DNA of 62,443 bases, filler included, from Sphacelaria rigidula (lineage: Eukaryota): assembly GCA_964200075.2 (NCBI GenBank). It is 11 parts of 11 records of this genome, joined end to end, with 100 filler letters (N's around TTAATTAATTAA, not from the genome) between each part and the next. Parts side by side here need not be neighbours in the genome. Positions count along the whole stretch, not along the records: positions 1 to 5,586 come from CAXNAA020026086.1; 10 more parts are not named here. One strand, 5' to 3'. The notes beneath the pieces are model-generated. The model was not told where the DNA came from. It searched no databases and saw nothing but the letters and a program-made list of their open reading frames with translations. The translations under genes were made by a program, and so were the position numbers. This document shows, one piece after another, positions 1-47,993 of this stretch (positions are counted from its first letter, which is position 1; each line of letters starts with the position of its first letter).

Positions 1-553
1 ACTGCTTTCCCCAAGCACGTCTGACAGGGCTTTGGTTGTGGGGGGGGCTGGGGGGGGGTGGGGTCTGAAAGCGACTAGCTTGTCCATGCTGTGCATTGTC
101 GTGTTGGGCCTCTGGCTTCGACCTTGCGAGACTCTTCCGTTGATCAGTGCGCGAAGTGGGCCTTCATGAAGATGCTGAGTATGCTCATATCGTTTCAGCA
201 AGTCATCTGTACAGCGAACACACTCAAGCGAGCACACTCAAGCATGCGTGACAGAAACGCGCGTGGCAGCATCCTTTCGTCATGCTTGAGTACGGTGGCT
301 TCTGTTTGCCTCCACGGGAGGTCCCCGGTGGTCTGCGTAATGGTTCGACCGTCATCATCAAGGGGGAGATAATGTGGGTTCGAATCACGATGCTTTGGAT
401 TTTTCCTTTGAAGTATCTGACTTCCACCGTCGAAAGCGTGAGTACGTGAGTGAACAAAAATTAATCGAGTGAGTTTGTTTGACGAAAATTTAACGCCGTG
501 CGGGAGTGCTGACCCAACCCGCGAGATCAAAATGTAAGGCATGTACCGGGGAG

Positions 554-634
554 GGGGGGGAGGGGGGCGCGTACTTATTTGTTGCTTGCCTTAGTCGTTT
601 GACCGGTGATCACGCATCCCTTCCGAGACGGAGC
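554..634 (-). mobile_element. Short C-tailed retroposon matching the LINE 3' end, with 15-bp TSD
   Basis: Matches 26005-26069. GCATGTACCGGGGAG is duplicated at 539-553 and 633-647. The G-run on + is a C tail on the element strand. Confidence 0.85.
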
Positions 635-2114
635 ATGTACCGGGGAGAGATGGGTTGATCCCTTGAGACTACGGACTCGTCCTGAGGAAAGGGGAGGGGT
701 TCAAAGTGCGTCAAGAAGAAAAAAGGGGGCGAGTCGGGGGAAATGGAGGCAGAGTGGTAATGGTGCCGCGACGATTTCAGCGGCACGGAGGGAGATCTGT
801 AGTTGAACACGGGATGCTGCGGGCGCGAATAGGAAGGGAGCACTACGCTGCCACCTGACTGAAAGCCGAGAAAGACCGGGGTTGAAGAGGACGGTGACTG
901 TAGCGTGGCGTAGAGGTGCGCCGAGGGTTGGGACCCGGATAGTGAACGGCGGTGTTCTTCCCGTGGACACGACGCCAATGTAGGTGATCATGTACTGTGT
1001 TATATTCTCGTGCTTTTGCTGTTGGTGTCCTCAGGGTTTTTACTGTGAATTTCCCGCCAGTGGCCTGCTGCGGCAAAAATTACCGTGCATGGATGTTCAC
1101 ATCACGCCAGTCGTAGTATTTCGTAATTTTCCGTATAGGGCAGCATGTTTTGGGCTCGTGGGCAGTAGGACGCCTAACTTCTGCGGACTCAGTGGGGACG
1201 GCAACAGGATTAGAATCAAGGTAGATCGCCTGACCTCGTGCCAACCCTATTGCGCGGGAAATCCTTTTTCTGTGTTTAAGTCGGTGTCTTGTTCGTATTT
1301 TGTGTTCAGAATGGAAACAATGGTCAGACTGCAAATGTTGGAGCACATAGGTCGGTAATTTTACTCAGACCCTGCCGAGACGGTGGCTTGGGTTGCCGAG
1401 GGATAAAGCCTAGTTACACAGCGCGTCGCTGCCGGTGCAGTATGCCTCATCGAACCTAGCACGGCCGCCACTTAATCCCGTCTTCCCTTGGAGCTTTTTG
1501 TTGTCATAAATCCTAACCCTCTTTTCCATGCTCTTTATTTCGGTATCGCTAAGGATTCCCACCCGAGAAGTGCGGATTAGTGATATCGCGGCTTTGATCG
1601 GCGGTGGGAGCGAGACATGAAGCTTCCCCGCAGAAACTAGCAGCCGGACAAGATGTCAAAAGTGGAGAGTTGTAGCACTTTCACCAACGACGCGTGTGGA
1701 TTTATCCGGATATTGATGTTTCAAGTACAGCAAACTTCATGGGGTGATTGATTTAGGGATCTGGCGGACTCCAGGAAAAGGCAGGCACGGAGCGGGAGCG
1801 GGGTTCGGGTGGGATGCGGGTGGGATGAATGAGCGAGGAAGTTCGCAGGCAAGTTGTCATTTGCTGGTGGGATGCTGTAAGGTGTCTCCACCCGTATTCT
1901 ATGCTCAGGAGTTCAACGCGTGGTCTGAGCTCGTTGGACATCGCCCACCCCTGACGCGATGATATAAGTGGGCAGTGACTGGCGGAGATGGCTGGCTAAA
2001 CTGTTTGTATTATTGCGGTTCCCAAAAACATTCCATCTCGCTATTGCGTCAATTGTTTGCAATATTCCACAGATGCACAGGATAGGATAGACTACAAGTA
2101 AGGGCTATTTGAGA

Positions 2115-2480: not shown

Positions 2481-4198
2481 GGTACATTTATCCTGATAGG
2501 TTCAGTTCGCTGTACGCTCGATCCCCGCACCCATGGGCTCAACCTTTACAACTCCCAGAGTGTCAGTGGCACCTAGCGTGCGCTACACCCACCAAGATAG
2601 GTCAACGCTACGGGAGGCGTTTGGGATTTTGCTTGTACGCAGTTGAACGCGGTAGAATCGATTCATCGGTCCGGTGTCCGGCACGCGACCCACGGTCAAT
2701 ATCAACGGCAACGTGACTCGAAGGTAGTGGACTGGAACATACGATATGCGTGCATGCTTCGGCATCGCGTCTTTTTTCTCTCGTTCGAGCGCAACTTGTG
2801 TCTAAGAACGTGCCAGCGCTTCTGCAGCAATTCAACTCCTGGCGCCGTGAGCGAGTTTCCAGAGCTCGTTTTCGTCGCAGCAGCCCCTCCTTTTCTTCCC
2901 GCCCTGAATCAACGTCAGCCGTCAGCCATTCATGTCACATATTGTTCGACACACGAGGACATACTTTCCTCACTGTCAGTGTTTCTTTTTTTTCGTCTCA
3001 AGGGCCCGAGACTCCCCAACGAATTGCCTGAGGAAAACGCTGAGGATGAGTGATGGAGCGTCGTCGGAAGCAGCATGAAGACCGAGATTTTTCATGCTGG
3101 TCCACTGGTTCACGTGCTCTCACGAGTCCGCTCGTGCGTGATATATCCTCTGACAATCACGCCGTCTATTTTTCTGACATATTACTTGTGTATTATATAC
3201 TCTACAGCGCTTCCATGTTCGGATACGGTCGACAGGAAGCTCGTGAGTTGGGTGCACTGCTGCTGGTAAACACCCGCGAGTACTACTTCTAAGTGTACAC
3301 ACACCATTCGCCTCTGGCGTTGAAAGTTCGGAAAGCGCAGAGTGCCCCCATATCACTTGGTGCCTCCCCGGAATCTACGATCCTGCCCCCAAGCGATTGC
3401 GTCGAGATCGCAATGAAATGGGAACATCTGTGTGTCACCGGGTGCGTTTACGGTTGAAGATAAAACCAGGGTCATTTGATGTCTTATCATGATCTATCGT
3501 CCCGAACATTTCCTCAGCTCTACTTTGCTTTTGTAGCGCGACGCTTCGCACGCGCGAGTCGAAGTAGAGCGTTTTTCCCGAAGGAGGTCACTCTATGGAC
3601 TGGGACCATGTCGATCGAGAGAGGGTTCCGTTCAATAGCTTCAATTACGTTGCGCGTTTCTTTTTTATGGAGCGTGGGACCGGGTTTTGCTGGAAAGTTT
3701 GCGCGCTTGGGATAAACTGTGCCTCTCGCGTGAGCAACTCAGCGACTCTTGCACCAAAGGACAAGGTGGGTGGCAGAAAAGGACCTTGATGCTCGCAGCA
3801 CCTTGTGGCGGGAAATGGTCCCGGAGCAGGACCGCGAGCACCGTTTCGGTTCGCATCTCACCCCTGCTACGTTGTCGATGACATTTGGCGCAGAGATTCG
3901 TCTCGGGGCGAGAGTGTGGCCGACAGAAACAGGCAGAGTCGCTGACAGTTCGGACAGCTCCGACTGTATCGGGATGAAGTTAGGGTCAGGGAGTGTCGTC
4001 GACACTTTCGACCCCGCCAACGGCGGTGTCGGACACATCGCCGACGCTGTCGGGGCTATCGCGCTGTCGTCGTCGTCGTCGAAACTGTCACCGACCCTGT
4101 AGCTGACGCTTCCGTCACGGTCGGATTTTTCAGTCCCAATGTCTAACAACACAGGTCTCCCTTTTCGTTGATGTGGGAAATGTTCCTATGTAGAATAC

Positions 4199-4982
4199 TT
4201 CACACGTCGGACAGATCAGGTCTCCGTAGCTCGAGGTAGCTCTTTTTCAGCGTAGCTCCATATCATAGTGGGCAATGAGAGCTGCACGAGCTACGCATGA
4301 TTTTTCCTGGGTGAGCTATAAGAGCAACATGTGCTACGCATGTTCGCCGTAGGTGAGCTATCAACCCGTAGCTCATCAGCTCGTATTCGCCGTGGGTGAG
4401 CTATGAGAGCTGCATTAGCTGTGCTTGTTTGCTCTAATTGAGCTTTTAGCCCGTAGCTCATCAGCTCACATTCGCCTTGGGTGAGCTATGAGAGCTGCAT
4501 CAGCTACGCACGTTAGTCCTGGATGAGCTGTGGGAGCTACATGAGCTACGCATGTTTGCCGTCGATGAGCTATCAGAGCTAGGCAAGCTATGCATAATTG
4601 CCCTGGATGAGCTACGGAACGTAGCTCATCCGCGCATGTTTGCCCTGGGTAAGCTGTGGAGCTACATCAGCTACGCTTGTTTGCCCTGGTTGAGCTAAAG
4701 AGCTACGGGAGCTACGCCGATTTTGGTGTTGTTTCTGTTCTGATGCTCATGCACATTAATACGTGAAAACGCTTACATGTGTACACACCTGTGTTCCGTT
4801 TTGAGCAGTGATGGATTTGCTGTTAGCAAACATCAGAATGACCACATCAGAAGCCATACCCACCGTAGCCACCACACCCACACACAACCACACGCACACA
4901 CAAGCCGCCCTATATGGCGACCGCTGGGGGCAGCAGCTCTAGCGGCGCTTCAGTCGGAAATGATGCCGTGGATCTGGATCCT
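4199..4982 (+). mobile_element. Non-autonomous dispersed element with ~40-bp GAGCTA subrepeats, a CA-rich tract and a GC hairpin near its end
   Basis: Collinear with the reverse complement of ~40962-41595, from TTCACACGTC to GTGGATCTG(G/A)ATCCT. Confidence 0.8.
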
Positions 4983-5151: not shown

Positions 5152-5586
5152 GGCGAGCATAGGTCATCTGTTGAATCGGCTCTAATTTCACTTGAAAAAA
5201 GTATGCATGACCAGATGGACTCGTACCCTCGCGGCCAGGCAGTCAAAAGCAATGAATTGGTTGATTATTCAAGACAACAAATCTCAATCATGTTTTGAAC
5301 CATTCGACCATGCGAACGAGGATCCGTGTTGAGCTCTTTTTTTCATACCGCGAAGAGCAAGGCAGGAAACAACCTAATGATATGTTGCGCAATCTATTCG
5401 AACAAGAATGTAACATCATGAGCGACACCGGGTTTGCCAGCGGCGAGCTACGCACATGCCCTGAGTGAGCTGACACTTTCTACGATAGCCCCCCCCCCAA
5501 ACCAGCAAAAAGTGTCACGAAATAAATGCCTATACAGCGCCTGGTCTTCGGGTTCAGGCTGCATGAAGCGCCCAATAGGAAGAGCG

Positions 5587-16958: not shown

Positions 16959-17388
16959 NNNNNNNNNNNNNNNNNNNNNNNNNNNNNNNNNNNNNNNNNN
17001 NNTTAATTAATTAANNNNNNNNNNNNNNNNNNNNNNNNNNNNNNNNNNNNNNNNNNNNCATCCTCAATCAATAGCACCATCCTCAACATAGATGATTGGC
17101 TGTTTTCATTGTGATACCACACCCCTGCAGAAAATGATCCTCCGTGTATAGAAAAATTTCAACAAATCTGCGAAACCATGACACATACAGGTGAACACAC
17201 GAATCCAAGTTTCGCGAATCTGAGCCCTCCCCGATTTGGCACAGATTAGGGTCCCACCAGATTCGGGATTGGCTGCTATACAAGTTGGTCTAACGCCTCA
17301 GATTTAGAAAAAGTGGGCTCTCGAATAAAAAAACGACGCGGGATTGGTCATAATAAAAGGTGTGGGTGGATTCTTATTTTTCTCCCAT

Positions 17389-17838
17389 AACACTGGATCT
17401 TACAAATTGGGGATGGATCTTTTATTGGGGATGAGAAACCCGGAGAATTAAAATCATCGTATCCACACCACCAAATCTTCAAAATATGGTTCCATTTGTT
17501 CACCTACTGATAGCTATTGACAACTGCTACACGCCATGGAAATTTGGACTTCGATCACCGAAATGTTGCGGTCCTAGGTGAAAAATCAGTTTTCGGGAAT
17601 TTTGAGCGTCCGAACGGACGCCAAAATGGTTCTGAAATTGATTTTTCACCTAGGACCGCAACATTTCGGTGATCGAAGTCCAAATTTCCATGGCGTGTAG
17701 CAGTTGTCAATAGCTATCAGAAGGTGAACAAATGGAACCATATTTTGAAGATTTGGTGGTGTGGATACGATGATTTTAATTCTCCGGGTTTCTCATCCCC
17801 AATAAAAGATCCATCCCCAATTTGTAAGATCCCGTGTT
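17389..17838. mobile_element. Palindromic MITE (~200-bp inverted arms)
   Basis: AACACTGGATCTTACAAATTGGGG ... CCCCAATTTGTAAGATCCCGTGTT, near-perfect arms. Confidence 0.9.
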
Positions 17839-18016
17839 CTATGTTGACTAGTAATTAATTAATTAAATACCTGATTAACTGATTAAATAAAATAAATAAA
17901 TTACTTCAAGGTTGATTGAGGATAGATGGTTGGATGGTTGGATGGTTGGATGGATGGATAGATGGATTGTATTTTTCGGACAAAGGGGGAAGACAACATG
18001 GGTGAATATCTTTTTT

Positions 18017-23264: not shown

Positions 23265-23709
23265 AACACGGGACCTTACAAATTGGGGATGGATCTTCCA
23301 TTGGAGATGAGAAACCGGGAGAATTAAAATCTTCGTATCCACACCAAATCTTCGAAATATAGTTTGATTTCTTCACCTACTGATAGCTATTGACAACTGC
23401 TATAAGCAATAGAAATTTGGACTTTGATATCCGAAATTTTGGGGTCCTAAGTGAAAAACCATATATGGGAAATTTCGGGTGTCCGAACGGACGCCAAAAT
23501 GGTTCCGAAATGGTTTTCACCTAGAACCCTAAAATTTCGGTGATCGAAATCATTTTTTTTTTCATAGCGTATAGCAGTTGTCAATAGCTATCAGTAGGTG
23601 AAGAAATGGAACCATATTTCGAAGATTTGTTGTGGATACGAAGATTTTAATTCTCCGGATTTCTCATTCCCAATATAAGATCCATCCCCAATTCGTAAGA
23701 TCCCGTGTT
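23265..23709. mobile_element. Second copy of the palindromic MITE, flanked by CTGA
   Basis: Same arms and same central CGAACGGACGCCAAAATGG as 17389-17838. Confidence 0.9.
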
Positions 23710-25004
23710 CTGAACATGTTCATCTTACACGCGAATCAAGATGCTTTAGCGGTCAGTCCGGCCATGTTGTCTTGTGAGTCATGCCACGGAAGGGTTTCTA
23801 CTCTTGGGCCCAGACCTTTCTCTTTGAGGTGCTCCCGAAGGTACGAGCTGCACAAGAATAGCGATCAGGACATTTCCGCTCTGGAATACAACCGAGATAT
23901 CCCTAGTTGACCATTGGAATGCTATTCGTGGCACGCTCTCACCCATTTCATAACTCGTCGCTTGGGTATTAGATAAAGGGCTCCTAACCATTCAAACTTG
24001 AGAAATAGTTTGTGCAAGCGTACCAGTAGAGTTAACCGGAGTTGGGCTACAACTTACTCATAGTTGATATTTCTTGATATGAGTGTGCACAACGAGGATC
24101 GGATCTTCGCCGGGGCTCGACAGTCCCGTGTACAATCTTCATGGTTGACGTATTTTACAACTATCGCTAACCCTAACCCTAACCCTAACACAACGCATAC
24201 AGAGAAACCTCCAGCAAGGGAGGTGCACAGGGTTTCCTCGGCAAAGTGTGGCGTTGGTAGACCCCAAATCAGCGTGGCACCGACTTGCACAAAATTGCGT
24301 TCTCGCAGTGCATTCTACAACCCACTCTTAGATTTGAGGAAGACGCGTCCCCTTACTAGCCACGAGGTTTGTTATATGTTCCGTGAAACCCACTGAACAG
24401 AAAGCGGGTGACCGAAGACCCACCGCGGTGGGTAAATGTGGAACGCACCCAATGTCTGTGGGTCCGCTCCACACGCACGCATAATCGACAAACGCAGGAA
24501 GCACCCAAAATTGTCTCTCGTACGACGTAGCAACAGTGTTGAACAATTGGCTAGTTCATGGCGAGCTCTTGATGTGGATATATGTGGGCTATCGAGGGTT
24601 CAAACCGTGACTGTGGGTCACGCGAGTAACAAGTAGAAGGGTTGATGCGTGTGTCTACTCACCTTCCTACATTGCTCAAGTTTTTACAGGATTCCATACA
24701 CAGGCAGGGATGAGCTGTCAACGAAAGCAGATCAACACCTAGAAACCAAATGCTATCTTCGGAGGTTATTCTGGAAAATAGCACATGTGCAAACCTCGCC
24801 AGAGGGGGGCAGAACGTATAAAACGGAGATTATAACCAGACGGCCATAAGCTGTAGTATGGAGCCATTCTTTGGCAACATCGGGATTACCCCCTGCAAAC
24901 ATTCGCGGTGTGAAGGAAGCAAGCTGGGATATATATATATATATATATATATGCGGTTGCTTTTCATGTGTTTGCACCTGTTTTCGCTTCTGGTGAGTAA
25001 ACAG

Positions 25005-25972: not shown

Positions 25973-26004
25973 GTAATTATATATATATAACACGGCAAAC
26001 CTCG

Positions 26005-28150
26005 CGTACTCATTTGTTGCTTGCCTCAGTCGTTTGACCATTGACCATGCATCCCTTTCGAGACGGAGCAACGTTCCTCATAGGGACACCTTCTACATTC
26101 CGGCGCTCATTACGTTTCTCCTATGCGTTGCACCAAAAACTTTTACATATCTTATCCCCGTCCTGTTTCGCCGTCTCTGGTCACCATTTATCTTCTAGTA
26201 TAATCATCATGTTCTCCCTACAGTATAATGCATCAAACGATTTCATGTCACCGTCGTTCGCGTCCCGCACTTCACCCTCTACCACGTCCCGTTCCTCCTT
26301 GTATAGTTCACGTTCTGCCACTATATGATTTCTGCTCTCTATTGCTTGGCCACAGGGGCAGCTCTGTCCATCTACTTCCTCCTCCTTTCGACGAGTGGTG
26401 AATCTCTTTCTTCTTTCTGGCAGGTCCAGGTCCCACACCCGAAGTCGCAGTTTCATATTTTTCGCCGCGTCCATTGGGCCATGCAGATATGCTTTCATCC
26501 CTATCCCTTTTCTTGACCCTCCGTACATCTCGAGGTGCACTTCCTCGTCTACTTTGCGTGTGAGCGCTCCTTTCCCCCTTATTTCTATCATGTCCCTTAC
26601 TTTGCCTTGTACCCCGTACCTTCACCAATGGACAGCATTTCGTCTTGGTTCCCGCCTATCTCCTTCCATATTTTCTCGACTTCTTTATCCCACCTTATTC
26701 CAGCCTGCCCTTTCGTACTGTTCCTCCATACAGCCCTATTAACTATAGCTGGCAATCTTTTTCTCTGCATGTTCTTCACGCTATATTGCCGTCGCAATTT
26801 TCTCACGTCTCTGTTAGTTTTAGGTGAGTATTCCCAACTCTGCTCTCAAAACTGTATTGCTCGTCGTCTTCGAGCATCCAAATATTTTCTTAGCTGCTGC
26901 CATCTGTACTGTTTCGAACTTCTTCACCAACGTCACGTTTCCCTCCCATACACCTCCTGCATATTCCGGCTTTGGAACGATCACGTTCATCAGGATACAT
27001 CGCTTTATCATGGTGTCTACGTGCGGGTCTCTCAGGACCACGTCCATCCTTTTTATTTGTGCCTCACCCTTCTGTATTACTTTGTTCATGTGTGCATCTC
27101 AACAATAGTTTTATGAGATCTCTACGTCAAAGTAGGTATACTGGTCTAGGACTGGCATTTCTTCTTCTCCTCACTTCCATTTTAACTCTACCGGATTTCT
27201 CTCATCTTCGATACAGACGAGTACCGCGCATTCGTTGACGTTCGCTGTCACTCTCCATTGCCTGGTGTATCCTAGCGCCTTGTCTATCTGTTACTGCAAT
27301 CCTTCTGGTGTTCCTGAAGTCCCCACAAAATCGTCTGCAGATATCAATCGTGATACCATATCTTCACCCACCTTGACCCCTTACTTTGCTGCTTCTATTG
27401 CTTTTATCAACTCGTTAATGAATACCTTGAATAAAAGAGGTGATACCGTACATGTTTGTGCAACTCCTTGTAAGATATCGAAATATTTCGATATTTCCTC
27501 GTCTAGCATCATGTCACTTTTGGCACATTCTGTCATCTTTTTCACCATTCTCCACATCTTTCCTCTAATCCCAGCTTTCCCACAACTTTTTCCACAATCC
27601 ATTTCTCCATACTTTGTCATATGCCTTTTGCACGTCCAGAAAGAAACAGTACGTGGTCCGCCCGGTGTCGTTTCTACCCTGAATACCCTTACTCAGTGTA
27701 TACACATGGTCTACGCAACTGCGGTTTGGCTAAATCCTACTTGTGCCTCGCTGATTTTGTCTTCCTTTTCTAGCATTGTTCCTATAATATCGTTCAGAAT
27801 CTTACAGAACATTTTCCCTAGTGTGCTCCGTGGCGTTATCCCTCTATAGTTCCCTGGGTCAGCCTTGTCTCCTTTTTTGAAAAGGTTGACGAGTACTCCT
27901 TCTCTCCACCCCACGGGTGTATACTCGTTTTCCCAGATCCAGTTGTACAGCATAACCATTATGGTAATAATCCCCTCTTCCCCGTACTTCAGAACGCATT
28001 CACTATTCCGTCTGCCCCTGCTGCCGTTTTGTTCTTGAGTTTAGCTACTCACTCCTTTACTTCATCTCTGGTAAACTTTCTCTGCAATGTTTTCGAGCCT
28101 CTACCCTCTCGTTTTGATGTCGCTACATTTACTTCTGCCTCCTCGTTGGT
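26005..28150 (-). mobile_element. Degenerate 5'-truncated LINE: RT domain and C-terminal Cys/His motif
   Basis: LFKKGDKADPGNYRGIT, GVAQTCTVSPLLFKVFIN, SADD (degenerate YADD-type motif) and CPCGQAIESRNH; multiple frameshifts. Confidence 0.92.
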
Positions 28151-28430
28151 TGATTTCCTTTTCGAAACCCATGTCGAAGTCCGTGTTCGCTTTTGGTGTT
28201 CCTACTTTACGGTAATGCTCGGCCAGCGCTTTTATCTTCCCCTTCCAACTACTGGTTGGGGTTAGACACCCACGAGGCAGTGTAAAAGCCGTGGCTGTCT
28301 CTGGAAGTGGCGATACCAGAAAATAAAACANNNNNNNNNNNNNNNNNNNNNNNNNNNNNNNNNNNNNNNNNNNNTTAATTAATTAANNNNNNNNNNNNNN
28401 NNNNNNNNNNNNNNNNNNNNNNNNNNNNNN

Positions 28431-31400
28431 GTTGACTCGCACTTGACAATATCGAACTCAATGGTTTCGATACTAGAGACTGTGTTCGGGTCTGCTAGCC
28501 CTGGTGCCCACTGAACTGGCATCTACCATCCCCAGCTAGAGTATCGTACCATGACATTACAACCGGTTGGGCAGAATGGCAGAACAGGGTGGTAGGCCTG
28601 CTGCAGTTATCGGTGAGCAGGCTGTTACTGAGCAGTTGCAGGAAGGAAGTAGTCAGATAAGTTCCTCAGCTCAGCTCATGCGTGATATGCAGTTAAGCCA
28701 AGCTGCATTACAGAGGAACATGGACGATATGAGGGCAGTAAGAGAGGCCGGGGGCGCAGAAAACAGTGGCGTCCACGATAGTGAAGGTTCCCATAGCCAA
28801 CAGGGGGATTTCAACACGAATAGAACAGTGGAGCGACGTGGTACTGGAGATCAAAGAGACCAATGGTACATCGGGAGTCAAGCTGTTCCAAAGGACGGAG
28901 CGCGCGACGCAATGAACAACGAGGCCAGCAGTGACGAAGCTGGGGGCTTTGTCCCCGCACGTGAGTCAATCCAAATGAACGATACAAGTGGAAATGTGTC
29001 AGGGGTTCCCGTTTTTCGACAGAACGTCCCAAAATTTTCAGGGAAGAGCGCTGATTACACTCGGTACAGGCATGAACTGGTCAACTTTGCGAGGGGCGAA
29101 GGAATTGGCTGGGTGTTTACCATGACCGGCGATAGTTCGCACGACGTAGATGTCGGTAATCCTGAATTAGAAACGGGGTATCTGGAAAGTAGACATGGAA
29201 AAGACACCGTGGCAGCCAACGTGAGGGCGAGACGTATGCTTGTTGCTAGTTTAGAAGGAAGGAGAGAGAAAGACACTTTGCTAAGAATTCACTCACCTGC
29301 TGCTGTTTGGAGAAAAATCGAGGATGTCTGTCGCCCCAAAACAAATGGGGCGAGAACCGTTTTGTTGGAAACGTTCGATGGAATCAAGATTGGTGTCCGT
29401 GATGATCCAGAGCAGAAGCTGCTCGAGATGGAGGAAATTGCACGTGACCTGAACTCATACGAGAAGCATGAGCGACTAAGCAAAAACCATATTCTCTTGA
29501 AAGTCCTCAACGTATTGCCCTTCGAGTATCACACCCAGAAGCAACTGCTGGAGGATCGAGAGGGACCGCTGACACGGGGGGTTGTTTTGACTTCGATCGG
29601 AAAGCGCTTCGAATCAACATCTTTTAAGGAGGAACTTGCCCGGGGAAAGAAGTCATCCCGGGGCGACCAGGCTCTCCTTGCTGGGGGTTGGACCGGAAAA
29701 CCGAGCGGTGCACACCGCAAGGGGAAACCGGGAAAATCCCAGGGCTCTGGTCACAAAAACGGCGGGAGCCAGAGTTGAAGTAGCTCTGGGTCGGCATCAT
29801 CGGACGTCAAACCGGCGACTGGGAAGCTGCTCCGCTGCCACGTTTGCGACGAGGACACGACGCATCGAGCCAGGAACTGCCCGAAGAGATACTGCGGGAG
29901 GTGCGGTCTGTAGGGACACACGTTCTGGGACTGTCCGAGATCGACAGCGAAGAAAAAAGACGTGGTGATGGCGATGGGCGCGGCCGACGACAGCGACAGC
30001 TTCTCCGTCTGTTCGGTGGCGGATAGGGAGGCCTTCACCTCTCTCGGCACCACCATCAACGGCGACGCAGGCGAGTATGCATTGAGGGTTGAGCGGGGGG
30101 GTGATAGTCAGCAGGGTGAGGGCGAACCGTGGGTATTTGACACGGGGGCTACCCAGCATTTCTCCCACGATTCCCATGAGATGACGGAGTACAGAGAGTG
30201 CAAGGGTAGGGTACTACGGTGCGCGGGAGGTAGTACTCACCCGATCGTAGGCAGAGGAAATTTGTCTCTTGCCTTCAGATCTGACGGACAGGATGTGATC
30301 CTAAAACTAGTGGATGTTGAACATGTATCTGGTGTCTGTCATCACCTCTTGTCACTCACGAGGACCCAACACATGGGACACACCTACAATGGTTTTCGTA
30401 CAGGTTTCCGGGTAGATCTCAATTCAGGCAATACACTGAAAATACCCGGACAACCACGTTAACTCAGAATGTACGTCCGTCGCCTCGACCAAAGTGGTAG
30501 AGACAAGTGTGCTTCGGCATATGCTGTTATTGCCCCGGGGGCTTTGCCTAGCCCCCAGACCGCTGACATCAACGAATTTCACTGTGCCCACGCCCACGTC
30601 CACGAGGACCTGCTGCGAAAGACGGCGAAGCAGCAGAGAAAGCAGCTGGATGGGGAGCTGCAGCCCTGCCGCGGCTGCTCAGAGGCGAAGGGGCTGCGGG
30701 CACCGATTATAATGTCGACGCACACGAGAGCAGCTAAGTCAGCGTCTAGGGTGTTTGTAGATCTTTCCGGGCCGAAACCAGTCAAGTCCTGCGGGGGAAA
30801 GTCGTACACGATAATAGTCCGAGATGAACACTCACGGCACACAAAGCTGTATTTCCTCCGGAAGAAGGATGAGGCAGAGAGATACTTCGCGAAATACATT
30901 GCATGGATCTCTCCGAGAAAGATTGAAACAGTCCGTAGCGATGACGGGGGTGAATCCTCGGAGGGTGCATTTGGTGAACTGTGTGACAGGGAAAAGATCA
31001 AGCAGGTGAAGACAACTGCCGACTCACCCCAGTTCAACGATGTTGCAGAGCGAGCGTTAGGTATAATCGAAACAGCAGACCTTGCGACCAGAATCCGAGC
31101 ATCTGATACCCAGATTAGCGCATCCCAAATGGTGACAGACTGTGGGATGAACAAGGAAACTGGGCGTGTCACGCCCCGAACTGTACTGCTACCTCGGCTA
31201 ACCCGCACCACAAATCACCGCATGAGATGTGGTGTGGATCACCACCAGAAGATAATCTCATTCCGTTCTTGAAGCCTGGTTTTTGTAGGAGGAAGCGGAC
31301 AAATAAATTGCAGCCGAAGACTGAAAAATGCTGGAACTTGAGCCCAGCCCCAGACTATCCGCATGACGCGATGCGAGTTCTGACTCTACGAGGAACTATC

Positions 31401-33919
31401 TCCGTGACAAGACATGTAACATGGGCACGTACGTCCGCTGCCCCCCCCCGCACACTACGACAAGCGATCCAGACGCCGGGCGAGCTGAAGGATTCCAGCG
31501 TCGATCAAGGCCAGGGTGTGAGTGAGGACAGGACGGAAAGCTCGACAGTGGACACTACATCCAGCGGTTCCTCAAGCGCGCCGTCCTCCCCGCCGAGTTC
31601 CGTTGGTGGGAGGGGCGGAGAAGCACCGCAGATCTCCGTCAGTAATGGAGGAGGCGAAGTGCCTTCACCGTCCCCGCGAGGGGGGGGGGGAGGCGGGGTG
31701 ATACCAGAGATTCCCGTTCCAGATTTTGTCAACGGAGGGGGTGAGGCAGAGCCGGAATTATCATCATCATCATCACCAACGCCAACATCAGTGCCGACGC
31801 CGACACCAGCGAAGACGCCGACACCTACGCCGGCGCAGACACCAGCGCAGACACCGACACCGACGCCGACGCCGAAACCTACGCCGACGCTCACATCGGC
31901 ATCGGATCCTCCCTCGTCGCTCGCACTGTCACCCTCTTCCACGGGTCCCTCGGAAGACGGCAGGGGGGGCGGCGACGCTCCTCAACTCTCGAGGACCGAG
32001 CAACGCCGTCTTGCGTGGGCTGACCGGTTAACAACACCAAGGGCGGGGCGAACAAGGAGCCTAATGCGCGAGGCCATGGGATCGGGACACGCACGAGGCG
32101 AAATGCTGATGGCTAGCGGAGCGGAGGAAAGCAAGAAGGAAGCGGAGATGGCGCTAGCGGGAATGGCGGAGGACAAATGCTCAACCATGGAGATGATCAC
32201 CGCGGCAGCAAGACAGGTGGCCGGACAAGACGCAATCGCTTCGACTCAACACGAGTTAGCTAAAATCGAGTTTTTTTGTTTTGTCGCTGAGGAAAACAGG
32301 GTAGGGCAGCCTGAATTCGGTTTGCGTTCACCGGTTGGCCTACACGTGAGCGAAATAAAGGCAGCACAAACCAGTATGGATGACATCGCGAAATCAGAAT
32401 TTCGAGAGGCATGGTTAGGCGCGATGCAGGCCGAACTAGGAGGTCATGAAAAGGCTAGAACATTTTCGACTGGCCCTGTACCGGAAGGAGTAAACGTAAT
32501 TTCAGCGAAGTGGGGTTTCAGTTGGAAGACTGACGCAGATGGTACTGTAACGAAGGCAAAGGCAAGATTGGTAGCACCAGGATTCGGACAACGTTTTGCT
32601 GTCGACTATTTCGAGACTTTCGCGGCAACGCCCTCCATGGCCTCCATCAAACTGGCCATGGCAATTGCAGTTCAGGAAGAGTGGCCGCTGTATCATTTTG
32701 ACGTAACACAGGCTTTTGTTCAGGCAGAGACGGATACCGACGTGTACATGAGGTTGCCTGGAGGTTGCTCCGTTTTGACAGACGTGACCGTGAATCTGAA
32801 AAAAATTATTTACGGGATCAATCAAGCGGACAGGCAGTGGTCTAGTCTTTTTTGCTTAACTTTACTGGAGGATGTCGGGATGGTGCAGTGTGAGGCTGAC
32901 CCACGTGTTTCCAGGATGGAGGATGAAGGAGACGTGCGTGTGATTTAGTTGTGCATGTGGACGACATCCTTATCAGTGGTTCTGAGGGAAACGTAGGAAA
33001 GGTAGGCAAAATCCTGAAAAAAACGTTCCTCACGAACAATCTCGAAGAGGTCACCTGGTACATGGGGTGCGCAGTGGATAGAGACTGGGATAGAGGAACG
33101 CTGTCTGTGACGCAAACCACGTTCACGGACACGCTCCTGAAGCGTTTTGAGGTGAGGAGGTACTCGGAAATCCCTGCCTCTGTTTCTGTAAAGTCGAGGC
33201 CGACAACGGGCGAAGACAAAAAAGGTGAATCGCCCATACCGTAACGCAGTGGGGGGGGTTGGTGTGGCTGGCAACAGTCACCAGACCCGACATCGCGAAT
33301 TCGGTACGAGCGCTTGCTCGCCAGTCGAATGACCCATGCGAGAGGCACTGGGAAGCTGTGATGAAAGTGCTGAAGTATCTCCATGAGACGAAGCAGTTTG
33401 GACTCGTTCAAGAAAGGTCTTGATAGGCTCTCAGTCTACAGCGATGTAGACTACGCTAAGAAGGAAACGGATAGGCGTTCGGTATCAGGGGTAGCCGTAA
33501 TGTACGGTGGTGTGGTAGTGTCGGCAAAGAGCCGCACGCAACACTGTGTGACTCTGTCAACTGCGGGGGCAGAGTATGTTGTAATAGCCGAGGGGGCAAA
33601 GGAGGGATTGTTTGTGAAGGCAGTGTTGACGTTCCTGCGACCGCAGACTGTGTCGGGATGCGGGGAGGACCAAGGTATTATTTTGTACGAGGACAACGAG
33701 GGAGCGAAAGCTCTGGCCGAGAATCCTCTCAGTCCCGAAAGGAGTAAGCACATAGACGTGAAATTTCACTTCATTCGAGAGCTGGTGGGGACGGGAAAGG
33801 TCAGGGTTGTGCATGTAGGCTCAGGATGGCAGCATGCTGATATTTTGACGAAGCCTCTCTCGATCAACCTGTTTACGAGGCAAATACGTTTTTTGATGAA
33901 CTTGGAAGGTGACAAGTAG
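28431..33919 (+). mobile_element. Degenerate Ty1/Copia LTR retrotransposon, internal region
   Basis: Domain order: gag (28576-29778), CCHC knuckles, protease WVFDTGATQH, integrase, RT (KARLVAPGFGQ, HVDD), RNase H (YSDVDYA, RSKHIDVKFHFIRE). Contains stops and frameshifts. Confidence 0.96.
28462..28472 (+). promoter_or_regulatory. Putative Copia primer-binding site
   Basis: TGGTTTCGATA directly after a possible LTR end (...CTCA at 28460), upstream of gag. Confidence 0.45.
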
Positions 33920-39802: not shown

Positions 39803-41039
39803 CCCAGGAAAAACATATGCTTAGCTATACATGTTTACCTTGGATGAGCTACGCTCGATAGCTCATCCAAGGTAAACATGTATAGCTCTTGTAGCTCACC
39901 CGGGGAAAACATGAGCGGATGAGCTACGCCCGGTAGCTCACCCCAGGGACACATGGTCGTGGCTCACTCACATCATATGCCTAGCTCGACGCTGGCCAAC
40001 TCCGTGTCGCTTATGATGTAACATTCTTGTTCCAACGGATGGCGCCACATGTCATTAGGTTGAGATGTTTTGCCTCACTCTTCGCGATAGGAAGAAGAGA
40101 AGCCAACACATATCCTCGTTCGCTTGGTCGGCTGGTTAAAAAAAGTATAAATATTCAGTGTCTACAATAATCGACCGATTCATTTCTTTTGACCGGTTGG
40201 CCGCGAGGGTACGAGTCCATCTGGCCGTGCATACGTTATTCAAGTGAAATTGGAGCCGATTCAACGAATGACTAATATGACATGCTCTGCTCGCCATGCT
40301 CGCCGTCAAAGGGTTAGCCCTTTGACCGCGAGGGTTGGCGATCTTAAAAATGAGCATGATTCATTTTATTTCCGGGTGTGAATGATGCCGATTCAGAGAC
40401 CTCCTACCCTCGTGGTCAAAGGGATGCGCACTCGTAGCTCTCATCATTCACATAGCTCTCATAGCTCATCCAGAGCAAACATGTGTAACTCATGCACCCC
40501 TCATAGCTCATCCAGGGCAAATATGTGTAGCTCATGCATCTCTCATAGCTCATCCGCGGCAAACATGTGTAGCTCATGCACCTCTCATAGCTCATCCAGG
40601 GTTAATATGAGCTGATGAGCTACGGGTTGGTATAGCTCATCCAGGACAAACACGCGTAGCTCATGCAGCTTCCATAGCTCACTCAGGACGAATCTGGGCT
40701 GATGAGCTACGGGTTGGTATAGCTCATCCAGGACAAACACGCGTAGCTCATGCAGCTTCCATAGCTCACTCAGGACGAATCTGAGCTGATGAGCTACGGG
40801 TTGGTAGCTCACCTATCGCAAACGTGCGTAGCTCATACAGCTCTCACAGCTCACCCCAGGAAAAACATGCGTAGCTCATGTAGCTCTTACAGCTCACTAG
40901 GGAGCTACGCTCAAAAAGAGCTAGCCCGAGCTATGGGGAGCTGATCTGTCTAACGTGTGAAAGGATTCAGATCCACGGCATTGTTTCCGACTGAAGCGCC
41001 GCTAGAGCTGCTGCCCCCGGCGGTCGCCATGCAAGGCGA

Positions 41040-41089
<50 letters not shown>

Positions 41090-41595
41090 GGCTACGATGC
41101 GGACGTCTTCTGATGCGGCCATGTTGATGTTTACAAAAGCAAACCCATCACTACACGAAACGGAACACAGGTGTGTGCACATCTCACCGTCGTCACGTAC
41201 GTACAATATCAACGTGCATGAGCATCGGAACAGAAACAACTGCAAGATCGGCGTAGCTCCCGCAGCTCTTTAGCTCAACCAGGGCAATCATGCGTACCTC
41301 ATGTAGCTCTCATAGCTCATCCAGGGCAAACATGTGCGGATGAGCTACGTCCGGTAGCCCACCCAGGACAAGCATGAGTAGCTCATGCAGCTCTCATAGC
41401 TCACCGAGGGCGAATATGAGCTGGTGAGCTACGGGTTAGTGGCTCGCCTATGGTCAACGTGTGTAGCTCATACAGCTCTCGTAGCTCATCCAGGGAAAAC
41501 TTGCTTAGCACACGTGGCTCTCATCGCTCACTAGGGATCTATGCTAAAAAAGAGCTAGCTCGAGCTACAGGGAGCTGATCTATTCGACGTGTGAA
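39803..41595 (-). repeat. Cluster of GAGCTA-subrepeat elements including an 87-bp tandem (40608-40806), a MITE (40318-40423) and (TG)n (41042-41088)
   Basis: Reverse complement of sequences in 4199-5470; tandem unit starts at 40608, 40695 and 40782. Confidence 0.85.
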
Positions 41596-42989
41596 ATAGT
41601 TGGTTTATCTCCAAGAAATAATGAAGGCCGCGCGCTTCCGATATCCTTCCTCTGCTCGGCGGACTTCCATCTCGATACTTTGTGCTTCTTCTCTGACAAC
41701 GTAGGACTTGGAACCTCTGGCACACATTGCAATCGGCAACCTGGAGACACAGCAAGTTGAACTGGTTCGAGAACTTGCCGAATATGGCTAAAGGCGGATC
41801 AGGCCAATGAATCAACAGAACACGAAAATGCCCGACATCCAGGAAAAGGGAGGGGGGAGGTAGCCAGAGGACCACACCAACGAATACGCGCTTCATTATT
41901 ACACAAAAACGCCCGATATGACACAGTATATACTATGGCCTACAGAGAGAGGCACCCGCAGCTCCTACCCTACTCCTATAACCCTTCCCCTCTAGCAGTC
42001 TACTGCACACGAAAAACAGTACGGTACAGTAGTGCTGTAGAAAATACGGGCGTTCCCCTGTGCCGTTGCTACACGGAGCGCCTGCTGAAATGAATGTCTC
42101 TCACGCCCTCGAGCATCAAACCATGCCCGATGGCTACAATTGCGTCCTCTTCCTTGGTACTTGTGTCTTTCTTTACGCTACAAAAACTAATCATGACAAC
42201 AGCAGAAAAAAACGTGCTGTGAATATCCCGTCAAGAAACGAAGCATATGGCAACTGCACTCTCGTGGTGGGGAATAGTCTCCGTCACCTTCACCATCAGT
42301 CAGACGATGGACGGTCCCGCTCCCCCCATTCATATCACCCCGCGACAGCGCACATCAAACAGGCACTACTGATGCCTCCAAACCCCAAATCACCCCCTAC
42401 GGCGATCTTCGCAAGTGGCACAAACTGCATGCACGCAGTACCCGTCGTCGCCCTCCGACTGACCGCTGCTCGCAAGTTAAACTAAGACAAAGCACACACA
42501 CGGACCCGTGCTCTCACATCTTCACGACACTCGGTCCTTGACCCTCTCCGTCCGGACGCACACCTTCCGGTCTCCCGTAACACCGACAATAACACTGACA
42601 CAGAAAACAGAGCACGTAGCCCAGCTGCTCCTTCCCCGTGACTCCCCTCCCGTCCCGCCTGGAAACGCCTAATCTAAAAATGAGGAGAAAAAAAGGACGC
42701 ATAATGGTGAAGATCCACGACATCTGTCGGATCTGCTAGCGATACCCGAACAACTACGCTGCACGCCTCGTGGTCTCTTGCCTCTCGCACCAGACCCAAT
42801 CCAAGAACAAACACAAGATCACCTTACACGGGCCCGTCTCTCGCTCTACGCGCCCCCTCCAACTGCGCGCTCGCTACCCTCCCTCCCCTCCTGTCAACGA
42901 TCCAACCCCAACCCGCCCACACCATGGAGGTGAGGAGAGCGGCAGCAACGACGGGGTCATGCGTGTACGACAGTAGTACTCGGGTATTT

Positions 42990-43100: not shown

Positions 43101-43722
43101 CTGGGAGGTGTTCAGTCAGCAGAGGACAGATGAAGGAGAATAAGGGGGTAGGGGGGGGTGTACTCCACGATCTTGCATGCTATAGTCACATGATCATTGA
43201 CCTCGCATCCCTACGAAGCCGGAACGGGGCACGCCGGGTTTTCGCCGGGTCAGGCTCGCGGTCAATAACCAAGCGCGAATCACCGTCATGTGTTTGGCGA
43301 GTCGCATGAAGAGTGAGATGCATCCTGCCAAGATCGTTCGGCCCGAAGGGTACTGATCATCTTGCATTTGAATGACAGCCTCCGATGATTTGCATTATTT
43401 TCTGGTATCGCCACTTCCACGGGCAACCACGGCTTACACACAGCCCCATGGGTGTCTCACCATCTCAACACTACATATGACCCATCATTCCCTTTGCGCG
43501 GAGTTGAGGTTCTCCCACCGGGCACAATATGATCTAGCTCGACCATCATCATTATTACCGCAAAAAATACGCACGCACACAAAATCGTTAACCTGATTGC
43601 CCAGCTTATCCAATGAGTGGCGTGTTTTACAGCGTCCTTACCAACCAATGCCAACCTTATAGGGGGTCCGTCCCTACAAAGCCAGGGCGGAGCACGCCAG
43701 GTTTTCGCCAGACCAGGCTTAA

Positions 43723-43820
43723 CCCTTAGACCACGAGATTAGTCTTTCTAGATCATGCATACTTTTTTTCACTCGAAATTGATGCCGATTCAACAGAAGA
43801 CCAACCTCGCGGTCTAAGGG
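43723..43820. mobile_element. 98-bp piggyBac-like MITE
   Basis: TTAA|CCCTTAGACCACGAG ... CTCGCGGTCTAAGGG|TTTA. Confidence 0.7.
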
Positions 43821-44498
43821 TTTAGGGGGTAGGGGGGGGGCGCACAACAATTCGATACAGGTGCGCAGGCACAGGCCGCGTGATAGTGGGAAGGGGACGC
43901 CAATTTCACACCCTGTGTACCGCCTGACGCTCGAAAAAGTCGAGCACAGTCAACGTGCGTGCGCCACTCGCAACAAGACGATGGGAACGCAAAACAAGAC
44001 GATATCAATAAATTTCTGCGTGTGCATCGATGGAAGCGGGGCAGAAGCAAACCCAGTATATGCGGAAAATGCCTGTACCGTACACGTACAGTTTGCCCAA
44101 ACGAAAAATCGAGGACATATATCTCTCTGAAGCAAGTACATGTACCAGACTGCATATGCAGCATCTAGGAAATGAAAACAGTTTCAAGCAAACAGTCGGC
44201 AGACTTCCGCCGCAGAGGAGCAGTGAGTGAAGATATATACTATTTATAATGTTCTGCATTGCACTCTTCGGTATACTGACTGTACTGCAGTTCTTTCAGA
44301 AGCGGCAGTTGGGGCATTTTGTCCGACGTGTCCGTAAAGGCTGGGGCCTGGGGTGTCACATCAAAACAAAACTCAATCGAAAAAAAGCGGCGGGAAATAT
44401 TTTTTTCCGATCTCATACGTTCACATCATTCATGTTCATATGTGCCTTCAAATATTGTTTTCAATTCTTCATGCGCGACCGGAAGGCAGGAAATGGAA

Positions 44499-44860
44499 AG
44501 CTCCCTGTAGCTCGAGCTAGCCATTTTTTTATCGTAGCTCCCTACTGAGATGAAAGAGATACATAACCTACGCATGTTTGCCCTGCGTGAGTTATGAGAA
44601 CTACGTGAGCCACGTATGTTTTCCTTGAGTGAACTATCGAGCGTAGTTCATTAGAGCATGCTTGCCCTGTATGAGCTATTAGAGCTACATGAACTACGCA
44701 TGTTTGTCCCGGGTGAGCCACCAATCCGTAGCTCATCACCTCATGTTTACTCTGCGTGAGCTATCCAGCGTAGCTCATATGTACATGTTCGACTACGAGT
44801 GAGCTACAGCCCATAGATGGGCTAGCTCACGAGCTCTCCGACCTGTGCGACTATCCGTTA
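44499..44860 (+). repeat. Short GAGCTA-family element
   Basis: Starts AGCTCCCTGTAGCTCGAGCTAG, as do the 4199 and 41595 ends. Confidence 0.7.
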
Positions 44861-45216: not shown

Positions 45217-46349
45217 CTTTTAGTGGTATGAGGGTGTTTGGGGGTGTTTGGGGAGAAAGGAATACTCATTTGCTGCTTGCCTTAGGCGTCTGACCATTGT
45301 TCGGGGGGGGGGGGGGCGGACCTAATTGGTGCTTGGCTTAACGATTTCAACATGGCCACGGCAACCCTTCTGAGCAGGCGGAATGTCGNNNNNNNNNNNN
45401 NNNNNNNNNNNNNNNNNNNNNNNNNNNNNNNNTTAATTAATTAANNNNNNNNNNNNNNNNNNNNNNNNNNNNNNNNNNNNNNNNNNNNGCAAAAAAAAAA
45501 TCCGTACCCCCCCCCCCCCCCCCTCGTCAGGCAAAAAAGAAAAAGAAGAATATATCCAAACGAAATGGGTGTTTCGGAGCCTTGTTGACGTCAGTAGATG
45601 AGGAAGACGTTGTCCAAACGATTCATGTGTGCCGTCTGTGCGTTGGCGCCTCTCTACCGACTCTTGTATTGTTGTTTGCAGGTGTGTGCTGCTGCATTTG
45701 TCCTTCCTTGTGATCCAAGTGATAACTCTTTTTTTACAAGTACAAAAAATCAAAATCTTGGTCTTGGTTTTTAGCAAGGATCCACACCTCTGCATAGATC
45801 GAGGTGTCAACCAGTCAGCAGGCACATTATTGCAAGCAGGTGCTAGTAGGGCCTTGGAGTTGAAATCTGGCACGGCACTTAAGTCGAACCGTCGGGATAG
45901 TGCTACGGATAGGGGTCATTCCCCTAGTTGTGCACCAATCTCGAGCGATCGTTTATGTGGAAATAAACAGTCGAGTGCACAGGGACACCACCGAGTTGTA
46001 TCAACAGTTGAACCTACGGCAGGAGCTGGGTTTATGGATAACCCGATGTGATTGTACAGTCACATGGTACAGAGCACCCAGTAGAGACAGAAAGCATCCA
46101 GGGTGAAGCAAGAGATCTGCCAGTTCAAGATACGAAGCAAAAGTATTTCTCGATAGCCATCTAGACCGGGGCAGCAAAAACACCATCTGCTGCTCTTCTT
46201 TCACTTGCTGTCTTTGACTCTGATCAATGATTCCGTACCCTATTCAACGTCAGGTTAGGGTTAGCGTACTTGGTGTGTATAGGAATGAGTGCTGACTTGA
46301 TATATATACAGAAAAGAAAATATTATGAGTGACCCCCTCCCCCCTCAGA

Positions 46350-46397
46350 GTGGTCAATGGTCAAATGACTAAGGCAAGCAACAAATGAGTACGCCCC
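46350..46397 (+). mobile_element. 5'-truncated C-tailed retroposon with 11-bp TSD
   Basis: CCCCCCTCAGA at 46339-46349 and 46398-46408. Confidence 0.8.
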
Positions 46398-47682
46398 CCC
46401 CCCTCAGAAGGTCGAAAATAAAAAATGGGAGTGTGGGTCCAGGATTTTTTTTGGTGCCCTCCTGCCTTATCCAAAAAATGAATCCAACCATCCAACCGTC
46501 AATCAACCATTTTGCTGAAAAAACTCCATATTGTCTTCCCCTTCATTGTCTTCCCCTTGTCCAAAAATATATATTATCCAACCGTCCACCCTCCAACAAT
46601 CTTTGAATTGTTTTGTCTTTCCCTTGTCTAGCTTGACAAAAAAATTGATGGGGTATGAGAAATCGATTAATTAAACAATTAATTAATTAATGATTGCTTA
46701 GCCCATTTTGCAGGGGAAAACAAGTGTCGGATTTTTTCTAGAAGTCCTCGCCGTCGCTGGGGCGTGATGCTAGATGATCCCAGGCCTTCGTAAAGGCCTT
46801 CTTATCGTATTTTACCACCCATTCTAACGTTTTCTAGGGTAGTCATCACCAAAGACATCAGGCGCCGCCATGGGGCCTAGGATATCCTTGGGCACCCTTG
46901 TTTTTCCTGGGGAATGGGCAACTCTATCTCCATCGCCATTGTGTACCGGTGGCCCAACGACACTTCTGCGCCCCGTTCACGTTCTTGGGGGGGTTCCCAT
47001 CGTGGTTGTGGAGGGTGATGGGCGTTCAAACGCGAAGAGCATAAATTCTCAAAATATTTATCGAAAAAATCTTGAAATCCCAACAAAATTTTCACTTTTT
47101 AACCCACTAATTCTCAGTATTTTCGGCTCAGCTTGTTTTTTTTTTTCTTAGCCAGCATCAGCACATCAAAAGCTTTAAAAAAACCCCAACTGTAGCATCG
47201 TGGGCAACTCCGTTGGCGATATACCATCTACCTCCCATAACAGACTCCACTTATGGCACAGAGGAAGTATTTCGATCTTGGTATGATGATGACTGCAGGA
47301 AATAATTCGGAATCTCTTCCTCGTGTGGTGGAAGACCTCACTACGCGTGCACTCACGAGGACCCTAAAGACCCAGTTCTGTTGAACTAGTCGTATATTTT
47401 CGTCGCCCTGGTCAGGGCAGGGAATCAAGCGACTGCTTGTGATGTGGCGAGGCGGCCTGAGTATATCGTGACCTCAACAGCGAAGACGCTAATCTCTTGT
47501 TGTGATTCACGTGCACCTGGCGTTGTCATGAAGCTATTTCGTTGGGCATGTCTATTTGCAACGGGTTTCTCCCAGTTTAGCGTCCCACCGTACGCACCAC
47601 CAGGAAGAGAATTTTGTCCCCAATGAACGTGAAATCGTTCCGCCTTCCTTCCTGTGGCCTTCCTTCACAATGCCCCCTACAG

Positions 47683-47731: not shown

Positions 47732-47993
47732 GTGAGTGCATTCGGGAAAAATTCGGAGTCTGCTTCCCGTGTGTGTAACCCTCTATCTCGGATCTCCCCT
47801 TGCCGCATTTGCTTCTCTATTCCTACTCATGCAATTCCTACTCCTTGAGTTGAGATCATATCATATACCTCGATGTTTAGCGGGATCCTGATTTGAATGA
47901 TTTCGAGAGGAAAATTTGATTTGATTGAATGTTTTCTGTCCTGCACCTGCTGTATGCTCTTCCGTTAACTCTAAACTTGACTGAACTCAACAG

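Follow-up and report, generated by a model that had tools for sequence, protein, structure and literature searches.

The closest described systems come from Ectocarpus, for which the supplement of a 2025 source (PMC12477816) lists RTEX-1_Ec32 ('single EN-RT ORF; (C)n 3'', with a 'C-rich' TSD) and RTEX-2_Ec32 ('(C)n termini/TSD', also with a 'C-rich' TSD). These elements are 5.5–5.9 kb long, have RTEX-4_NV and RTEX-1_BF as published best hits, and are listed together with RTEX-N1_Ec32, which measures ~600 bp, has a 60-bp 3' end in common with the LINE and occurs in tandem (PMC12477816). An RTEX-1 has also been reported from Saccharina (PMC4421812). For L1, four matching terminal primer bases suffice, and priming complementarity adds to the specificity of the endonuclease in site choice (PMC3649969).

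Here, we analyzed a 62,443-nucleotide window of Sphacelaria rigidula DNA, made of 11 contigs of ~5.6 kb each with N spacers between them, from a genome of 244 Mb in 27,214 contigs. The (−) strand of positions 539–647 reads, in order, TSD, 65-nt stub, 17 extra C-rich bases and TSD. The 5' copy of the 15-bp TSD (633–647) overlaps by 3 nt with the 5' end of the stub (571–635), and these common nucleotides are a microhomology. The stub starts at the −65 hotspot described below and comprises the C-terminus of the LINE ORF, the stop region and the start of a 5-nt UTR; it is 90% identical to positions 26003–26070 and matches the C-terminus of the P0001 protein in tblastn searches. It is followed by an element-supplied tail of 17 nt beyond the target's own C's (554–570) and by the exact 3' copy of the TSD (539–553), which begins with CTCCCC on the element strand.

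Besides the LINE end at 26006–26070, the window holds seven further copies of the LINE 3' end on five contigs, which agrees with the original prediction of about seven recurrences of a ~65-bp sequence on five contigs. In addition to the copy at 539–647, these are a 43-nt stub (46350–46392) with an extra tail of G+C4 and an 11-bp TSD (46339–46408, (+) strand) and, all on the (−) strand, a stub beginning at −64 with a C-run upstream and its 3' end cut by the contig start (22745–22802), a 38-nt stub with C14 upstream and an imperfect tail (45262–45300), a 68-nt stub with both upstream flank and tail C-rich (56911–56978), a 65-nt stub flanked by C-runs with a G+C6 tail (62301–62365), and the 3' end of a further copy (62436–62443), which carries a C12 tail and is interrupted where the window ends (62424–62443). 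Among the six window stubs with a visible 3' end, GAGTAC(G) leads into a clean C run in four, and the C-rich tail is imperfect in two (45262 and 56911). The two TSDs of the original prediction were likewise confirmed, since each is exact and occurs within the window only at 539 and 633 (15 bp) or at 46339 and 46398 (11 bp).

The long LINE copy of the window (26006–28253, (−) strand) is broken and 5'-truncated, lacks a C tail and retains the RT and the C-terminal part of a single EN-RT ORF, with stops and frameshifts; it aligns by tblastn with residues 612–1360 of P0001 (53%). P0001 is a 1,360-residue endonuclease and RT protein carrying PF03372/PF14529, and long copies from the same genome align over its whole length (residues 1 to 1360). 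These copies have ~5.3 kb in common (L070 837–6096 with L074), and the element measures ~5.3–5.7 kb. Pfam searches detected RVT_1 in two own-genome copies (L067 and L068, E=5e-21) and gave a weak endonuclease match in another (L064, E=0.028). The best homologs of the LINE protein are EN+RT proteins (72%) and the best named ones are from Ectocarpus (59–65% amino acid identity), and the LINE origin put forward at the outset is supported. A close relative (L155) has one stop-to-stop frame of 1,426 residues and no other plus-strand frame longer than 75 residues in its first 1,000 nt, on a contig that starts inside the leader; the own-genome copies are too broken for a separate ORF1 check. The 5' end of the LINE carries 63-bp tandem repeats that reach back to position 393 in L070, where about ten units (393–1015) are possibly promoter monomers.

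The ORFs of intact relatives end in the same final codons, followed by a stop, GTACG and C's, and the LINE 3' UTR is therefore ~5 nt long. The stubs contain the last ~19 codons of the LINE ORF, the stop and then GTACG; we found no SINE-type pol III head derived from tRNA, 5S or 7SL in the 65-nt stubs, which consist wholly of LINE ORF-end sequence. As far as tested, the 65-nt stubs thus appear to derive from the LINE's own ORF end by 5' truncation and not to form a separate retroposon.

The element has a LINE-type RT and, as seen through P0001, an N-terminal APE endonuclease in the same ORF, together with a fixed 3' end, variable 5' truncation and variable TSD length, as in APE-type LINEs. A quick RT tree with 30 rows places two own-genome copies in a clade with two Ectocarpus-containing clusters (SH-aLRT 99), and these two nearest-relative Ectocarpus protein clusters have a C-terminal motif in common with the LINE. 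The placement among LINE clades proposed earlier is thus answered in part, by the grouping with Ectocarpus, in a tree without clade-labelled RTEX references; the protein cluster atlas returned generic EN/RT clusters only. We consider that the element is probably a non-LTR retrotransposon of brown algae, of the type known from Ectocarpus under the annotation RTE-X (RTEX-1/2_Ec32), a judgment made jointly with that on its priming mechanism, below.

A sister LINE group, ~50% identical in the RT, is represented among ENA/Logan proteins by P0018, P0095, P0096 and P0010, which end in a GCVVNG-like motif right before the stop codon, a hint that a 3' signal located within the ORF may be old. Two bacterial MAG records (L158 and L159) hold eukaryote-type LINE sequence 60–68% identical to P0018, probably as host contamination. 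Two distant-relative loci from genome_contigs lack the 3' end, and their tails are not visible; three viral_contigs matches to distant relatives were discarded as chance matches.

Other repeats in the window comprise a broken Copia-type LTR retrotransposon (28555–33919, (+) strand) with gag, protease-like, integrase and RVT_2 domains, and broken Gypsy-type pol pieces (51328–54123, (−) strand) with RVT_1 and a weak RNase H match. A ~455-bp repeat occurs at 17386–17840 and 23265–23712; each copy matches the other in both orientations (84–86%), so the repeat is nearly palindromic and MITE- or foldback-like. A family of ~85–90-bp tandem repeats is found on several contigs (4196–4982, 39842–41598 and 44499–44778), and a 670-residue repetitive open frame rich in Ala, Val, Glu and Pro (47929–49941, (+) strand) has no Pfam match.

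The 3' end of the element is followed by C's throughout the genome. Exact copies of its 3'-terminal 22-mer number 3,663, of which 2,778 continue with N-CCCC and one with N-AAAA, with 0 for the reversed-pattern control; the pattern is far beyond chance, which substantiates the predicted C tail and rejects a poly(A) tail. We also assembled a junction pool of 177 3'-end matches from the window and from fetched loci, a mixed set of loci ranked by likeness to the window copy, RT-match loci, pattern matches on the largest contigs and 200 kb of unselected sequence. We discarded 5 matches because of N's, short flanks or duplication, 12 whose GAGTAC was damaged, and 9 copies with under 80% likeness over the final 25 nt (family B, described below, or diverged), which left 151 copies. 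At least 7 C's lie within the first 12 nt after the end in 131 of these and at least 7 A's in none, and the unselected subset gave 13 of 15 for C. Relatives from other assemblies (metagenome contigs) have GTACG and a C-run at all four visible 3' ends. In contigs from four sequencing runs, loose ends consisting of C-runs are seen both beyond the tail and ahead of position −65; these data are contigs, not transcripts, X5 may be the window's own sample, and runs X1–X3, only guessed to be RNA, have profiles that resemble those of X5 and are uninformative on transcript ends. With 11 3' ends in 199,807 unselected bases (~55 per Mb), the genome would hold roughly 13,000, with a wide margin, and the element may contribute notably to the C/G runs of such genomes.

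Target sites were evaluated in the 124 copies with both flanks readable. A run of at least 5 C's is present in the 30 nt upstream of 75 of these copies, compared with 202 of 6,660 background 30-mers (3.0%), and a run of at least 5 G's in 5 of the 124, which bears out the predicted insertion into C/G runs; 16 of the 124 are nested in the tail of an earlier copy. TSDs were scored when at least 9 nt long with at least 3 non-C matches, and were found in 31 of 124 copies, against a mean of 1.6 and a maximum of 5 for shuffled pairs, in line with the target-primed insertion that had been proposed. They start with C in 28 of 31 cases and range from 9 to 20 nt (median 15 bp), lengths that are upper bounds because C's common to tail and target are unassignable and pure-C TSDs unscorable. 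Most copies lacking TSDs would speak against the original prediction, and 93 of 124 have no scorable one, all-C TSDs being unscorable and old copies decaying; the TSD rate is 16 of 31 in the copies most like the majority (at least 97%), 8 of 34 at 93–97% and 7 of 59 below 93%.

These data also bear on a reading without retroposition, in which slippage, recombination or misassembly would have trapped a short repeat within C/G microsatellites. Many copies do lie at contig ends or beside N gaps, and homopolymers are poorly handled by assemblers. However, the TSDs consist of unique sequence, the 3' end is fixed while the 5' ends vary, the tails are strand-consistent, being C and never G, and the same ends recur in other assemblies and in the four read sets. 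We regard this reading as extremely improbable and as refuted by the TSDs, the genome-wide tail counts and the ends found in other assemblies.

Two motifs recur in the 3' flanks, TATCGTAG in 8 of 172 copies (49 of 4,440 background windows) and AAAAGTGTCACG in 8 of 172 copies; their place in the window is 5470–5530. A 3' transduction of a common flank was rejected for TATCGTAG, as the motif lies inside the TSD in L014 and L088, and the motifs suggest a further abundant repeat, with C-runs into which the element inserts. At the 5' junction of a 61-nt stub in L088 (1450–1461), the extra bases between TSD and stub amount to about two units of TTAGGG, which we take to be the telomere repeat, possibly added at the second nick by telomerase or through capture of telomere RNA.

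In target-primed reverse transcription, the first nick sets the tail-side edge of the TSD. TSDs that start with C's would thus imply a primer ending in G's, complementary to a C tract. We favor, with good though not full confidence, an element of the RTE-X kind in which a nicked G-run, paired with the C tract of the RNA, primes the RT. The endonuclease would nick the G-rich strand in or at a G-run, freeing a 3'-OH primer that ends in G's; these G's would pair with the RNA C tract right behind the stop codon, where the RT would start, and a second nick ~15 nt away would yield the TSD. That tails are interrupted and A's missing points to a C tract transcribed by read-through at the donor locus, with priming from within it; the tract is probably genome-encoded and not a post-transcriptional tail. 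Every insertion would add a new C-run, and copies would pile into one another's tails.

The main competitor to annealing is that targeting results only from an endonuclease preferring G-runs, with an RNA that ends near GTACG and forms no rC:dG hybrid, the apparent tail being the duplicated target run extended by RT slippage or later microsatellite growth. This model draws on the 13 of 31 TSDs that abut GAGTAC within 2 nt, where the 'tail' could be wholly target-derived, and on the C's common to tail and target, which are assignable to neither. Against it stand 14 of 31 copies in which GAGTAC and the TSD are separated by 5 or more extra bases, mostly C; over all 31 copies, 144 of the 186 extra bases after the first are C. 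Among these 14 are targets with only 3 C's (L123, L109 and L121), where expansion is unlikely; in L123, the target has C3 and the tail C14, the additional C's being supplied by the element. Furthermore, nicks are not confined to a fixed junction and can fall inside the run, as in L081, where the target run of C19 leaves only C4 on the 3' side. Both of these classes, extra element-supplied bases and nicks within the run, are unambiguous. An endonuclease preference thus explains the targets and not the extra C's at three-C targets, and we consider it unlikely to be the whole account. The predicted annealing of the C tail to G runs accordingly holds insofar as it fits the junction and TSD geometry, the annealing step itself being one that we infer and that is not separated from an endonuclease preference for G-runs.

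The element is accompanied by a non-autonomous partner, designated family B, at least 510 nt long, with a body unrelated to the LINE and a 3' segment of ~66 nt whose homology with the LINE end sets in where the stubs begin. Its copies have C tails and C-led TSDs, and it occurs in tandem at L039. The copy at 43143–43839 ((−) strand) consists of a ~510-nt unit (43160–43669) and an upstream piece, and combines the LINE-like 3' ~66 nt and a C tail with an exact 16-bp C-rich TSD at 43143/43824. The window also holds the 3' end of another copy, with a C-rich tail and cut by the contig end (22584–22644, (−) strand), and a 71-nt piece adjoining the truncated 5' end of the LINE and likewise cut by the contig end (28260–28330, (+) strand). 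Rfam searches with family B (L141 and L049/L092), including its head, returned no match near the gathering score. Five copies (L011, L049, L092, L114 and L147) begin within a few bases of ~298 nt from the 3' end, which suggests a 5'-truncation hotspot particular to family B.

The 5' ends of the LINE copies concentrate at −59 to −69, in 52 of the 124 sampled copies and in 46 of 85 when length-chosen loci are excluded. Exact genome counts fall from 3,609 (to −63) to 2,933 (to −65) and 1,230 (to −67), and only 2 of 18 long copies differ at −66/−67, indicating that about half of the copies extending to −65 end at this point. In the mechanism we favor, most reactions would capture the last ~65 nt only, probably the unit recognized by the protein, and family B carries the same unit. 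The candidate recognition unit would then be very small, ~65 nt, and lie inside coding sequence. Folding of the 3' end gave z = −1.08 for one copy, and none of the 28 predicted pairs had changed on both sides, so covariation lends no support to an RNA structure there; a hand-drawn long 3' stem was rejected, as it failed to beat shuffles (500/500) and had one pair out of register.

The same concentration raises the possibility, toward which we do not lean, that the ~65-nt stubs are not chance truncations and derive from a discrete short RNA, which would be either the 3' part of the LINE transcript, released by processing or protected by protein, or the product of one or several mini-SINE masters. 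The loss over −66/−67, much steeper than that over the two preceding bases, the clustering of the 5' ends and the start of the family B homology at the same point are all expected for such an RNA, as is the A or T found just 5' of the stub in 14 of 17 listed 65-nt copies, where the LINE has G. Conversely, the 5' ends scatter over about 10 nt, 65 nt is too short for a promoter, and RT stalling at a local stem would look the same. Short and long copies also have variants in common (both show C/T at −27), an argument against a single clonal master though not against several. More speculatively, and we hold this rather doubtful, the LINE RNA might be processed, or protected by the element's own protein, to a ~65-nt 3' module plus C tract; located within the final codons of the ORF, this module would form a complete recognition and priming unit, retroposed alone thousands of times by rC:dG priming, making its own C-run targets and seeding the partner.

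Our data indicate a real feature that belongs to an already catalogued kind of element, with an anatomy correctly described and a mechanism that, as inferred, is plausible. Like RTEX-1/2_Ec32, with their single EN-RT ORF, (C)n end and C-rich TSD, the element has one ORF (L155), a C tail, C-led TSDs and a partner with a common 3' end of ~60 bp, so that all the features compared agree. It differs in representing a separate, mostly decayed lineage, with copies ~80% alike in DNA and 59–65% amino acid identity to proteins of Ectocarpus sp. CCAP 1310/34, the comparison with RTEX-1/2_Ec32 itself being one of published descriptions, not of DNA consensus sequences. The tail and target chemistry presented as unusual in the original prediction is hence on record, since the supplement of PMC12477816 already describes RTEX-1/2_Ec32 as '(C)n 3'' with 'C-rich' TSDs; its proviso that the family might have been described before largely applies to these elements and their partner, strict family identity left aside. 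The entries considered here give no priming mechanism, TSD lengths or −65 hotspot for RTEX-1/2_Ec32. The literature, Repbase, Dfam and subscription journals aside, yielded no account of rC:dG priming or of 65-nt stubs, and we did not find the sharp −65/−66 truncation hotspot or the 5-nt 3' UTR in print. Beyond the chemistry recorded for Ectocarpus, our analysis contributes the geometry of the junctions, the UTR of 5 nt and the hotspot at −65.

The partner has counterparts too: RTEX-N1_Ec32 and RTEX-N2_Ec32 are described in the same supplement as ~600 bp long, with a 5' head of no known origin, a 60-bp LINE 3' end, a C-rich TSD and tandem occurrence, and family B likewise has a ~66-nt LINE-like 3' end, a C tail, a TSD and tandem copies, a comparison that concerns the 3' ends, TSDs and arrangement. 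The microsatellite-tailed RTE/RTEX LINEs of plants and green algae have simple-repeat tails and SINE partners with the same 3' end (PMC3747384); the tails in the rows considered here are of the types (TTG)n, (CA)n, (CAA)n and (CCAT)n, among others, and include no C homopolymer. The ends of the Saccharina RTEX-1 are not described in the relevant passages of PMC4421812. As in human L1, an APE-type endonuclease is combined with an RT and the TSD starts with the tail base, and complementarity of primer and tail, which guides priming in L1 (PMC3649969), would do so here. In contrast to L1, C:G replaces A:T, no ORF1 was seen, the 3' UTR is 5 nt long, and the 3' end is sequence-specific and common to the partner, not a poly(A) signal. 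By this analogy, and with the same confidence as in our main explanation, of which it is part, the element is likely to work like L1 with A:T swapped for C:G. It would thereby be a natural C:G counterpart to the A:T priming of L1 and a clean test of nicking versus annealing in LINE target choice.
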